Shown here: positions 20,674 to 22,704 of the stretch, in pieces
Position numbering within the stretch: the first letter of the stretch is position 1
How the letters are laid out: every line of letters starts with the position of its first letter
From: Patescibacteria group bacterium
Lineage (GTDB): Bacteria; Patescibacteriota; Patescibacteriia; 2-12-FULL-57-11
Direction of reading: 5' to 3'
Assembly (NCBI GenBank): GCA_004297205.1
Contig: SCUL01000002.1
Location: forward strand, 188,594 to 252,593
DNA: 64,000 bases
Notes under the pieces: model-generated
What the model was told of the DNA's origin: nothing
The model's database searches: none
Seen by the model: the letters and a program-made list of their open reading frames with translations, nothing else
Translations under genes and position numbers: made by a program

Positions 20674-20746
20674 CGGGCTATAGCGCAGTTGGTAGCGCGC
20701 TTCGTTCGGGACGAAGAGGCCGTGGGTTCGAGTCCCACTAGCCCGA
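20674..20746 (+). tRNA. tRNA-Pro (anticodon CGG)
   Basis: CGGGCTATAGCGCAGTTGGTAGCGCGCTTCGTTCGGGACGAAGAGGCCGTGGGTTCGAGTCCCACTAGCCCGA. Cloverleaf with acceptor CGGGCTA/TAGCCCG, anticodon loop TTCGGGA, T-loop TTCGAGT. CCA is not encoded. Confidence 0.85.
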
Positions 20747-20765
20747 CTCGGCAGCTGATCAGCAA

Positions 20766-20792
20766 AACCCGCCATCTGGCGGGTTTTTGTTA
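20766..20792 (+). terminator. intrinsic terminator downstream of tRNA-Pro
   Basis: CCCGCC-ATCT-GGCGGG hairpin followed by TTTTTGTT. Confidence 0.6.
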
Positions 20793-20799
20793 TCATAAG
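20766..20799. repeat. direct repeat, left copy (tRNA-Pro terminator region), bounding low-GC islet 1
   Basis: AACCCGCCATCTGGCGGGTTTTTGTTATCATAAG matches AACCCGCCGTACGGCGGGCTTTGTGTTATGATCG at about 22671..22704 at roughly 80% identity. Confidence 0.5.
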
Positions 20800-22670
20800 G
20801 GCGTATGCCCAAGACAATAAGCGGCGATGCGTGAGAGCTCCCTCAAAAGCCGGCCGTTCTGCTGGCGCTGATCGTTGCCGTCCGGCGGCCGGACATCTCA
20901 ATGATACATGATCTAAACGTGCTGTAAGCTCGTCATATACAGACGCTTTACATACTCTGAGAACATGTACGTGATGCCTTCCGGTTTCCTACGTTCTCCA
21001 ATATTCGTGATTGGTGGATAACCGCTATGCGCATAGACCGCCAGCCGCGGAGCAACAGATTCCGGCACAACGCGCCGGAATTCAGCGTAGACGCGAGACG
21101 CATGTGCCGAGTTAGCAGTGACAAGAACGTTCAGCGATCTCCCTTTTATTTTTGCCAGCGCTTCGAGACGTCTTGCGACGAAACGAGCATTCCCTTCCGT
21201 GTCTACGGATTGCTCGTCGGGAATTAAAATATCGAACGGAACAACCGGAGGGAAATCTCCCAACGGCTTAAGCCCGGGCATTCCTTTGAATTTTTGATCG
21301 TATGTGTCAACCAACAGAGCAGCGATGGTTTCATCCGCCTCGCTAAACTGTGCCCGAGCCCCGCCATCCTCTTTGACGTCATGGGGTTGCTGCTTCCCCG
21401 CCGGAATTGCAAAGGCTTCAGGAAACGCATTCAGTGGTTCGCGAGCAAAATAGCCCTGGAGTCCGCCCTCATAGGACGCAAGAACGACGACAGCATCGAC
21501 GCTCCCCCACTTCTCTTTGATGTCTTCAAGTGAGTTCGCCTTCCCGGGGTGATTCTCGGGAAGCGATAAGTTTTCCATTGAACGTTCAAGAAGATCGCTC
21601 AGTTTTATATTTTCTTTCTCTGACGGATGAGCACCGTAGAGTTCGTCGAGTTCTTTGTACATCGCAACCCGTTCTTTGTTGTGAACAGCGTTATCAAGAA
21701 TCTTTGCAGAAAGTTCTCGGGCTCGATCCTGGTCGGCCGGAGAAAGCGATGCATTGAGTTTCTCAATGACAAAGGCAGCAAAAATATCCGACACGGAAAG
21801 TCGGCTCGGCCGCTCCGGATATGCCAAACTGTTTTTCGGATGATGAAATTTTTCTTCTTTCAGCAACAGACCGAGGTCTCTTGCCTCCGGAAAGAGTGAT
21901 TCGTAATCAATAGGAGCACCGCCATTCAAAGCATTGAAAATCGCACCGAAATCCGGATCTCTTATAGAGAGGCTGTAATCGGCCCAATCTCTTTTGTTTT
22001 TGACGACGCCGGCTTGATCGAGCGCCGGCCCCACCCTTTGCCAAAAACCGCTCTCCCGTAAGAGATCTGAAAATGTTTCAAACCGAAAACCGTATTTTTC
22101 AATATATGCATCGCGCTGATCGGCCGGATTGACGTGATCAATGTATGTGAGTTTGCAGATCGGCCTCTGATGAGGCACATCGACCACTGTGTCAAAACGA
22201 TCGTCAATAACCTTGCGACACCACTCCTGTTTTTCCTCACGAGCATCGGGGCCGAACTTTTTTAAAATACTTTCCGCTTCACGATTTGCCACTTCATCTT
22301 CCTGATCCCTTTCAAGACGCTCGATGAGGGGCTTGATCGTTCCAAGAAGCGAATCAAGAGATTCAAGTTGTAATGCAAGGGTCGCTTCGTCGGAAGTCTC
22401 GTCAAAAAAAATTTCCGCCCGGACTGAAGCGTTTTCCACTATCTTTTGAAGTTCTTGAGACGGGCGCTCTCTCATGGCTTTCCCGCCAATTGCTGCTTCC
22501 GCGCCAGAAGCTGCTCGCGACGAAGAAGAACGTACTCCTGCAATTTTTTTATTTTTTTGAGTGTATCTTTTTTCTGTGGTTTCGCCATAATGCCGTATAC
22601 GAGATAGCGCTTTCAACAAAAAACATCTTACATTGAGAGTGCTTCGCGTTCAAGACAGAGAAATCACCCG
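20800..22670. mobile_element. putative integrated single-gene islet (low-GC, no integrase) next to tRNA-Pro
   Basis: GC drops to about 45-50% across the cargo ORF versus about 65-70% in the flanks. It abuts a tRNA and is bounded by the imperfect direct repeats described above. Confidence 0.4.
20913..22619 (-). CDS. hypothetical protein (568 aa) with C-terminal DUF218/YdcF(ElyC/SanA)-like domain; cargo of low-GC islet 1
   Basis: A long ORF in an AT-richer segment. The C-terminal region ..DAVVVLASYEGG....LNVLVTANSAHASRVYAEF.. resembles the DUF218 'LVTSxxHMxRA' core. The N-terminal ~380 aa are unrecognised. Confidence 0.55.
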   Translation of the reverse strand: MLKALSRIRHYGETTEKRYTQKNKKIAGVRSSSSRAASGAEAAIGGKAMRERPSQELQKIVENASVRAEIFFDETSDEATLALQLESLDSLLGTIKPLIERLERDQEDEVANREAESILKKFGPDAREEKQEWCRKVIDDRFDTVVDVPHQRPICKLTYIDHVNPADQRDAYIEKYGFRFETFSDLLRESGFWQRVGPALDQAGVVKNKRDWADYSLSIRDPDFGAIFNALNGGAPIDYESLFPEARDLGLLLKEEKFHHPKNSLAYPERPSRLSVSDIFAAFVIEKLNASLSPADQDRARELSAKILDNAVHNKERVAMYKELDELYGAHPSEKENIKLSDLLERSMENLSLPENHPGKANSLEDIKEKWGSVDAVVVLASYEGGLQGYFAREPLNAFPEAFAIPAGKQQPHDVKEDGGARAQFSEADETIAALLVDTYDQKFKGMPGLKPLGDFPPVVPFDILIPDEQSVDTEGNARFVARRLEALAKIKGRSLNVLVTANSAHASRVYAEFRRVVPESVAPRLAVYAHSGYPPITNIGERRKPEGITYMFSEYVKRLYMTSLQHV

Positions 22671-22704
22671 AACCCGCCGTACGGCGGGCTTTGTGTTATG
22701 ATCG
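22671..22704. repeat. direct repeat, right copy bounding islet 1
   Basis: See the left copy. It includes a hairpin CCCGCCG-TA-CGGCGGG that looks like a degenerate copy of the tRNA-Pro terminator. Confidence 0.5.

Follow-up and report, generated by a model that had tools for sequence, protein, structure and literature searches.

How does a small low-GC operon come to stand directly behind a tRNA gene in a high-GC genome, bracketed by two similar hairpins and accompanied by no recombinase of its own? This question is raised by a 64,000-nucleotide stretch of DNA (hereafter the window) from a groundwater Patescibacteria group bacterium (assembly GCA_004297205.1, contig SCUL01000002.1, positions 188,594 to 252,593), in which an islet of about 1.9 kb follows the tRNA-Pro(CGG) gene. 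We are highly confident that this islet was inserted by a recent horizontal event, that relatives lack it, and that both sequences bracketing it descend from the native tRNA-Pro terminator. The event can be read with unusual clarity, and its like has apparently occurred more than once in this genome; its mechanism is what we infer below.

The mean GC content of the window is 0.643, and it goes down to 0.45-0.53 across 20750-22750, remaining low until about 22700. At third codon positions (GC3) the difference is even plainer, as the cargo gene has a value of 0.481 and the small open reading frame (ORF) preceding it 0.487, against 0.834 ± 0.061 in native genes (n=53; z about -5.8). A first-pass annotation of this DNA had described a low-GC segment adjoining tRNA-Pro(CGG), and this was confirmed by ARAGORN and Rfam for the tRNA and by GC3 (0.48 versus 0.83 ± 0.06) for the segment; an Rfam scan of the locus returned nothing beyond the tRNA. 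The segment from about 20797 to 22662 is recently acquired foreign DNA, as the same annotation had proposed, and both GC3 and the unoccupied site in relatives support this. Pfam families of integrases, resolvases and transposases were found neither in the islet, which had been noted before, nor in a scan of about 54 predicted proteins from all over the window (the main contig measures 856 kb). The only ORFs of the islet with homologues or conserved partners are the 520-aa cargo gene and the 38-aa ORF, and the remaining listed ORFs overlap the cargo. An independent Logan contig (SRR8426588) is 100% identical to the window over 20700-28218 and covers both junctions of the low-GC segment, therefore a chimeric join is unlikely. 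This contig breaks off inside the tRNA, which is probably a graph break in sequence shared with other genomes, because the same tRNA is found in relatives, and not evidence of excision.

The state of the locus before the insertion can be read in related genomes. In the closest relative (L168/L183, GCA_964355835.1, from Hainich groundwater), DNA 92.4% identical to the window extends from UppS through the tRNA, its trailer, the hairpin and the tail, exactly to position 20796, and resumes at 90.5% identity from 22749 on, with the promoter and the gene of a thioredoxin-like protein. Between these two points L168 has a single terminator, AAAACCCGCCGCGTGGCGGGTTTTGTGTTATGAT, followed by the gene of a 129-aa receiver-only response regulator (RR). 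The order in relatives is UppS, tRNA-Pro, one terminator, RR, thioredoxin-like gene and VKOR. The junction of tRNA-Pro, one terminator and RR was seen in L168/L183, L169, L171 and L088, as well as in a second lineage (L172, L173, L176); on the shorter contigs of L170, L174 and L175 only the part with RR, thioredoxin-like gene and VKOR is visible. These tRNA-Pro/terminator/RR loci are bona fide unoccupied sites. The empty site expected in the first-pass annotation was therefore found, but not in the predicted form of direct adjacency, since the RR gene lies between the tRNA-Pro terminator and the thioredoxin-like gene.

Fragments of this RR gene are still recognizable in the window on both sides of the cargo. 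The 40 nucleotides 20797..20836, following the tail of the left hairpin, resemble the RR start of L172 in an anchored alignment, in which 5 of 5000 shuffles and 0.04% of real 40-mers score as well (p about 4e-4). Their likeness to the RR start of L168 is weaker in the anchored comparison (p about 0.03) and not significant by free local alignment. The remnant escapes detection by BLAST. The sequence following the right hairpin gave no RR-start match in the same anchored comparison. What follows there, starting seven bases past the tail and abutting the conserved promoter of the thioredoxin-like gene, is an internal RR fragment (22710..22751) with 79% identity over 43 nt to the RR genes of L168, L169, L170, L171, L088 and L183; the RR of L177 was matched too, and the local score of 39 was reached by 0 of 1000 shuffles. 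Thus, the RR gene has been destroyed in the window, with remnants following both repeat copies. Relatives carry the whole gene in the place of these fragments, so the state of the window is the derived one.

The two hairpins form the left repeat L (20766-20796, AACCCGCCATCTGGCGGGTTTTTGTTATCAT) and the right repeat R (22671-22702, AACCCGCCGTACGGCGGGCTTTGTGTTATGAT). L and R are the only places in 64 kb with an exact match to AACCCGCC-N4-GGCGGG, and also the only ones with the tail motif TGTTAT[GC]AT (128 kb, both strands); GTGTTATGAT, a part of R, is unique in the window. Local alignment of L and R, which reaches 8 nt beyond them to the left, gives 31 matches in 40 columns and a score of 33, compared to 16.1 ± 2.3 for shuffles (maximum 27). 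Over hairpin and tail 26 of 32 positions are identical and 6 differ, the longest shared runs being 6-8 nt. The similarity suspected earlier thus exceeds shuffled controls, but it does not exceed a generic terminator. The window contains 18 terminator-like hairpins, and one of them, unrelated and located at 61468, ties with R in its score against L (32 each), so that the similarity by itself would fail the refuting condition set in the first-pass annotation. The terminators of this genome therefore resemble one another. The one at 61468-61500 (CAGCAAAACGTCCCGCCACGGCGGGACGTTTTGTT), which is strong and bidirectional, has the CCCGCC/GGCGGG core and flanking A/T tracts in common with the tRNA-Pro terminator.

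Specificity comes from the terminator of the relatives. With the L168 tRNA-Pro terminator as a query, R scores 44 and L 43, while the best unrelated site of the window scores 28; with only the non-hairpin tail of this terminator, R scores 26 and the next best site 17. R is identical to the L168/L088 terminator at 28 of 32 positions, and at 13 of 14 in the tail. Because of the scores of 44 and 43 against 28, and because the tail motif is confined to L and R, both copies descend from the native tRNA-Pro terminator. The two repeats thus exist as first quoted and both are homologous to the relatives' single terminator. However, the description of R as simply a degenerate copy did not hold, since its tail, TTTGTGTTATGAT, matches the terminator of the nearest relative better than the tail of L does. 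The repeat begins 11-19 nt past the tRNA end (trailer end, hairpin, tail), and R carries no tRNA sequence on its left. L folds well on either strand (-21.3 kcal/mol, z -3.9, on the plus strand; -20.5, z -5.4, on the minus strand), and with its symmetric A/T tracts it is plausible as a predicted bidirectional terminator for the convergent tRNA and cargo genes. The folding of R is only moderately better than that of shuffles (z -1.9), and since the genes on its two sides diverge, there is no transcript for R to terminate on the plus strand.

Table 1. Features of the tRNA-Pro islet, its flanks and the second islet, in window coordinates
Feature	Position	Strand	Remarks
UppS (undecaprenyl diphosphate synthase), left native flank	19938..20630	-	Pfam Prenyltransf, E 6.6e-76; divergent from the tRNA
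tRNA-Pro(CGG)	20674-20747	+	ARAGORN; Rfam tRNA, 71.8 bits
Left repeat L (attL-like)	20758..20796	+	Hairpin AACCCGCC-ATCT-GGCGGGTT (20766-20785) and tail TTTGTTATCAT; contiguous with the native tRNA trailer
Putative RR leader/first-codon remnant after L	20797..20836	+	ATG at 20805; anchored alignment to the L172 RR start
Spacer of unknown origin, RR-start remnant to cargo stop	20837..20912 (76 nt)	.	GC ~0.60 to 20895, AT-rich beyond
Cargo gene, 520 aa	20913..22475	-	ATG at 22475; GC 0.48-0.52; TAK04817.1, EPO33_02365
Small ORF, 38 aa, basic, MAKPQKKDTLKKIKKLQEYVLLRREQLLARKQQLAGKP	22472..22588	-	ATGA overlap with the cargo start; called in the Logan contig
AT-rich module upstream region (presumed promoter and 5' untranslated region), right end of foreign DNA	22589..22662	-	GC of 22479-22670 is 0.438
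Right repeat R (attR-like)	22663..22702	+	Hairpin AACCCGCC-GTAC-GGCGGGCT (22671-22690) and tail TTTGTGTTATGAT
Internal RR remnant	22710..22751 (42 nt)	+	RR nt about 148-190, 'LLDLRMPGMDG' region
Right native flank	22753..23184	+	Conserved promoter-like site 22753-22781; thioredoxin-like gene 22807-23184; VKOR 23186-23626; collinear with L168 at 90.5% from 22749
Second low-GC islet, single 404-aa ORF	Islet 34028..35387; ORF 34082-35296	-	GC3 0.521, z -5.2

The remaining parts of the locus are listed in Table 1. On the left, 43 nt separate the tRNA from the divergent UppS, whose synteny is held in L002, L088 and L168; the tRNA of L002 is identical to the window copy, and those of L168 and L088 lie inside the flank alignment that is 92.4% identical overall. 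On the right, the thioredoxin-like gene has a promoter match upstream and a weak Pfam Thioredoxin match, the VKOR match has an E-value of 7.3e-23, and the thioredoxin-like protein is 100% identical to NCBI EPO33_02370, placed on the 856-kb main contig of this metagenome-assembled genome. The spacer 20837-20912 matched nothing in any fetched locus. We also considered its GC-rich 60 nt (20837-20896) as a relic of the thioredoxin-like 5' end, which would imply a 560-nt duplication; this idea was rejected, as the best score was 28 against L172 (1 of 1000 shuffles), but chance matches elsewhere, taken as a control, reached 37, 32 and 31. For the region upstream of the module (22589..22662) no homology to relatives was found, and its promoter match is at the consensus level only.

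The cargo had been taken for a single minus-strand gene of 568 aa with a C-terminal DUF218/YdcF-like domain and ~380 unrecognized N-terminal residues. The ORF is real, but 568 aa is only its longest possible reading (from a TTG start), and the NCBI entry of 567 aa likewise begins at an upstream start and swallows the small ORF. We place the start at the ATG at 22475, because homologues align from there and because the small ORF upstream is conserved, and this gives 520 aa. The cargo is thus not one gene but a two-gene module. An equivalent small ORF (~38-48 aa, basic, probably helical) lies directly upstream of the homologue at every locus read (six loci, five homologues: L082, L083, L084, L085/L086, L087). 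It ends with an ATGA overlap with the homologue's start in L082, L083, L084 and L087, and 3 nt short of it in L085/L086; the motif L-K-K-L-x-x-[YF]-L is common to these ORFs. In the islet, the small ORF is translationally coupled to the cargo gene.

The search for cargo homologues and their genomic contexts, which had been recommended as a check, was run. Word-index searches, either with the cargo alone or with a profile, gave only the cargo itself and one relative, and it was an exhaustive HMMER search that revealed a family of 31 representatives among 1.84 billion cluster representatives (best identity 43%), one of its members being in Candidatus Falkowbacteria. The homologue loci read are on contigs of 37-53% GC, the GC of the module being that of its contig. 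In these usual hosts, Patescibacteria of lower GC, the module is surrounded by genes for cell-envelope glycans, and its neighbours include GT4 and GT2 glycosyltransferases, a Polysacc_synt flippase, PMT, EamA, a LytR-CpsA-Psr ligase, a methyltransferase, a Gfo/Idh/MocA oxidoreductase and, probably, a fragment of a GDP-mannose dehydratase (partial ORF). The window has a large envelope-glycan cluster of its own at 35545-63260, the kind of neighbourhood which is usual for cargo homologues. It contains genes of an rmlA-like nucleotidyltransferase, an RmlD-type reductase, a dTDP-sugar epimerase-like protein, dehydratases, epimerases, GT4, GT2, PMT_2, EamA, GtrA, a Bac_transf priming transferase and UDP-glucose dehydrogenase.

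The cargo is a cytoplasmic protein. Its N-terminal ~300 aa form a helical domain, and the domain at its C-terminus is YdcF/DUF218-like. Its own match to Pfam DUF218 (PF02698) is 23.9 bits, with a gathering cut-off of 27.6, and a DUF218 match at E up to 0.01 is present in 26 of 27 family members (best 1.9e-9). The AlphaFold model built on the family alignment has a predicted local distance difference test (pLDDT) score of 92.4, and its C-terminal domain was recognized as a YdcF-type alpha/beta fold. The closest known system for the cargo protein is the DUF218 / YdcF-SanA-ElyC family (Pfam PF02698; PDB 3ca8), for which a Thr/His/Glu catalytic core was proposed (PMC12176290). Candidate counterparts in the cargo family are T426 and E379, neither of which varies, and the His of H-x-x-R, found in 24 of the 26 members spanning this motif. 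ElyC and SanA, both DUF218 proteins, act in envelope/peptidoglycan precursor homeostasis, and YdcF binds S-adenosylmethionine (SAM) (PMC3879167, PMC12176290). A PDB sequence search with the cargo gave no significant match; the PADLOC defence library and NCBIfam had no match for the cargo, the small ORF or the cargo of the second islet described below; and the cargo had none in viral contigs, phage records or plasmids. From its fold and gene neighbourhood, it might have a cytoplasmic, nucleotide- or SAM-utilising role in the synthesis of envelope glycopolymers.

Within 14 kb of the first islet there is a second one of the same architecture. Its single 404-aa ORF looks secreted, with a signal-peptide-like N-terminus, and it has no family match and no match in viral contigs. 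It is flanked by repeats of 61 nt (34028-34088 and 35327-35387) that are 79% identical and correspond to the last 52 coding nucleotides, the stop codon and a few bases of a native PEGA-domain gene (32761-34080). In the relative L183 the PEGA gene has a single 3' end and there is no 404-aa ORF; over 52 nt it is the far, non-functional copy that is closer to L183 (88.5%). The polarity is equal in both islets, namely target gene, cargo on the opposite strand and displaced copy of the target. No motif is shared between the repeats or the inner ends of the two islets (all z <= 2.0). Since the repeats are unrelated and there is no common motif, it is unlikely that one integrase served both islets, and it is possible that both arose by homology-guided crossover or by different trans-acting recombinases.

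The mechanism we favour, at a rough probability of 0.55, is a single reciprocal crossover with a circle carrying a diverged copy of the target. The partner would be a circular DNA, brought in perhaps by transformation, a vesicle or a phage, with a related but non-identical terminator region (hairpin, tail and first RR bases). One Campbell-type crossover inside the terminator region directly downstream of tRNA-Pro(CGG) would give, in this order, the tRNA, the hybrid terminator L, the captured RR start, the reversed cargo, the hybrid terminator R, the native RR and the thioredoxin-like gene, and the native RR would afterwards have decayed to the 42-nt fragment. The enzyme could be an integrase acting in trans, an integrase since lost, or host homologous recombination. 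Recombination between L and R would produce the junctions ...GAGAAATCACCCGAACCCGCC[loop]GGCGGGTTTTTGTTATCATAAGGGCG on the circle (attP) and ...GCTGATCAGCAAAACCCGCC[loop]GGCGGGCTTTGTGTTATGATCGCGAGG on the excised chromosome. At present, the left hairpin could terminate both the tRNA and the convergent cargo operon, and the right hairpin would be a relic.

The circular intermediate, the single crossover and its enzyme are what we infer here. Three features of the sequence suggest separate origins of the two copies instead of a duplication at insertion. L and R differ at 6 of 32 positions, while the divergence of the flanks from another species is no more than 8-10% and the composition of the cargo shows no amelioration. 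Moreover, the tail of R matches L168 (13/14) and L runs into an L172-type RR start, whereas the native DNA (trailer, promoter) is closer to L168. Finally, the 100 nt after L are GC-rich, as expected from a previous high-GC host rather than from the low-GC source of the cargo. As to the site-specific integration proposed in the first-pass annotation, the insertion and the terminator copies stand, but site-specificity would be a matter of interpretation: because the second islet has an unrelated repeat and the copies of the first differ at 6 of 32 positions, a homology-guided single crossover is at least as fitting as one dedicated integrase.

Some observations nevertheless weigh against the single crossover. 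As the 61468 terminator is as L-like as R, the similarity of L and R alone is not decisive. The discordance between an L172-like flank of L and an L168-like tail of R rests on about 55 nt of fast-evolving non-coding DNA, and the identical runs of L and R, only 6-8 nt, are short for RecA. The similarity between L and R ends at the left edge of the RR deletion beside R, so that the model needs an independent deletion at that very point. Neither the circular form, nor an excision product, nor a strain-level empty site was seen, the nearest relatives being other species, and the scan of 64 kb out of a main contig of 856 kb gave no integrase.

Could the two copies instead have arisen at the insertion itself? 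Foreign DNA would then have entered the leader or 5' part of RR, and at least 40-75 nt of target, comprising hairpin, tail and RR start, would have been copied on both sides. Divergence of the copies followed, as did the loss of RR nt 1-147 from the right one. Such a product might come from replicative template switching at the palindrome or from the filling-in of a long staggered break; palindromes are hot spots for template switching. No recombinase is needed, and L is contiguous with the native trailer and the RR start, and R with an internal RR fragment, just as a native duplication would give. We still consider this account unlikely, though worth keeping in mind, since copies born identical must have reached 19% divergence (6/32), and 21% in the second islet, while the GC3 of the cargo stayed at 0.48-0.52 versus 0.83 and the flanks are 8-10% from another species. 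In addition, the flank of L resembles the L172 lineage and the native DNA L168, and target duplications above 30 nt are untypical of known transposases. One may also think of a larger, integrase-bearing element at an attachment site in the tRNA-Pro terminator, reduced by later deletions to one operon, most of the neighbouring RR gene being deleted too. The tRNA-adjacent position, the imperfect att-like repeats, the foreign composition and the absence from relatives would all agree with such a decayed island, as would the fact that the interval from UppS to the thioredoxin-like gene differs in nearly every relative and that in L180 part of the 3' half of tRNA-Pro (65 nt) recurs at a distance of 145 nt, as is classical for the footprint of an integrase. 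However, no remnant of an integrase or another gene is left, the module being separated from the repeats by just 116 nt and about 74 nt of non-coding DNA; no part of the tRNA is found in the repeats; and a second minimal islet with an unrelated repeat would require complete decay to have happened twice. A decayed island is thus quite unlikely in our opinion.

The chance is smaller still that R is an unrelated terminator or regulatory hairpin and that the module replaced RR by illegitimate or flank-guided recombination, with no target duplication. The GC-rich terminators of this genome are alike, the one at 61468 equalling R in its score against L, and the fold of R has a z of only -1.9. This coincidence is very improbable given that R matches the relatives' tRNA-Pro terminator at 28 of 32 positions (tail 13/14), that the window has a single GTGTTATGAT and no TGTTAT[GC]AT outside L and R, and that between divergent genes there is nothing for a plus-strand terminator to do. 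Least credible of all is that no insertion took place, either because the locus is a chimeric metagenomic join or because the module is ancestral and was lost by relatives. It is true that the source is a metagenome-assembled genome and that the Logan contig ends inside the tRNA. Yet, the Logan assembly of SRR8426588 is identical across the 3' half of the tRNA, L, the cargo, R and 5.5 kb beyond; L and R differ, which makes a join by repeat collapse impossible; and an ancestral module is at odds with relatives having an intact RR where the window has fragments.

How does the islet compare to known systems? Like tRNA-linked islands (P4-type tyrosine-integrase islands; Prochlorococcus tycheposons, bioRxiv 10.1101/2020.12.28.424599), it is foreign, directly downstream of a tRNA, unoccupied in relatives and part of a variable hot spot, and it has an imperfect direct repeat of ~40 nt, one copy of which would be the host's and one the incoming element's. 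Unlike them, it has no integrase, it measures only 1.9 kb with one small operon, its repeat is the tRNA terminator plus the start of the next gene and not the 3' part of the tRNA, and the neighbouring gene was destroyed. It also resembles, by analogy, a miniature cis-mobilizable element (CIME), defined as an att-flanked element whose integration and transfer genes were lost (ICEberg 2.0, PMC6323972), being flanked by attL/attR-like repeats and devoid of recombination or transfer genes. However, it is far smaller, its repeats are about 78-81% identical, no parent integrative and conjugative or integrative and mobilizable element with the same att site is known, and its host is a Patescibacterium. 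We found no description of such elements in Patescibacteria (the Candidate Phyla Radiation) in open-access papers and preprints. With Campbell-type integration, as in insertion-duplication mutagenesis or suicide plasmids, the islet shares its arrangement, in which the insert stands between two target fragments and the gene copy on one side is truncated; there, no element-encoded recombinase is needed and any target works, which fits two islets with unrelated repeats. Unlike in suicide plasmids, the homology is very short (40-75 nt) and diverged, and the event is a natural one in an uncultured organism. Insertion sequences, transposons and miniature inverted-repeat transposable elements differ from the islet, whose repeat is imperfect and 32-40 nt long, which has no transposase, and near whose ends only an 8-nt perfect (15-nt at 80%) inverted pair was found, judged to be at chance level for a 2.3-kb region. 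It is not like an integron cassette either, as the module has its own AT-rich upstream region and adjoins a tRNA, the attC model had no match in 20400-23000, and no IntI-type integrase was found among the scanned window proteins. In sum, this is a minimal, 1.9-kb, recombinase-free, att-flanked islet in a Patescibacterium, and what it targets is the tRNA-Pro terminator together with the first bases of the next gene.

The surroundings of the islet are variable as well, the interval between UppS and the thioredoxin-like gene being a rearrangement hot spot, of which nearly every relative has a different version. In L002 it holds four native-GC genes and tRNA-Pro is inverted; in L182 a further membrane-protein gene separates RR from the thioredoxin-like gene; and in L180 (GCA_041643055.1) UppS and RR are not at this position. 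At 7595-7892 of L180 there are two duplications, one of a 65-nt segment with the 3' half of tRNA-Pro (82% identical, 145 nt away) and one of the 5' end of the tRNA (27 nt, 85%, 35 nt away), which looks like the footprint of a past integration/excision at the tRNA itself. With respect to its neighbouring genes, the orientation of tRNA-Pro(CGG) in L002 (9895-9968), L177 (1-50) and L180 (7770-7843) is opposite to that in the window (20659-20760), L168 and L172. Inverted repeats on either side of the gene (I3 in the window, I1/I2 in L180) lengthen its acceptor stem to about 20 nt, and these could mediate its inversion in place.

Further differences from relatives were seen nearby. At 23583-25124 of the window, cupin and methylenetetrahydrofolate reductase genes lie between VKOR and DUF6580; neither is in L168/L183 (L183 10878-10924), and the cupin alone is in L180 (8900-9301). 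The reductase segment has the highest GC in the window (0.73). At 18986-19921, NUDIX and cupin genes lie between an MgsA-like ATPase and UppS, where L168/L183 has NlpC/P60 (L183 7901-8536); in L002, an additional 465-aa membrane protein (10697-12094) stands between UppS and the cupin. Other short stretches with GC <0.55 are 29851-30550, 52001-52650, 55101-55700, 6901-7350 and 9451-9950; one of them covers the 5' (ATP-cone) end of ribonucleotide reductase and one adjoins tRNA-Glu (7071-7145). Intermediate GC3 values characterize a sortase (0.64), an unannotated ORF at 48047-48823 (0.68) and EamA (0.69). These stretches and genes may be older acquisitions. Paralogous duplications are found in two adjacent MacB/FtsX-type permease segments at 315-2567 (repeats of 204-206 nt, 71-81% identical) and in two adjacent large genes at 9892-13732, Ser/Thr kinases by L183 synteny, which have 65-nt and 37-nt repeats in common.

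How the very small genomes of Patescibacteria gain genes is a question on which we found nothing directly on point in the open-access literature. In the locus described here, the states before and after one acquisition can be read base by base, as the intact site, preserved in several groundwater relatives, the inserted module and the remains of the lost regulator are all available. The cargo defines a rare, structurally well-predicted family, in which a small peptide is coupled to a long YdcF/DUF218 protein and which is linked to envelope-glycan clusters; this family gives a handle on a domain family of still unknown biochemistry. Two islets with one architecture and different targets point to a recurrent, possibly recombinase-independent route of insertion, for which metagenome-assembled genomes can be searched. 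One might go further and propose that Patescibacteria exchange single genes as minimal recombinase-free cassettes, each carrying, in short and diverged form, the 3' end or the terminator of a conserved target gene, entering by one crossover with fixed polarity and able to leave as a circle via the repeats. We put this forward as a speculation, more likely wrong than right by a wide margin. If true and general, such cassette exchange would amount to a separate way in which genes move among these streamlined, episymbiotic and probably competent bacteria.

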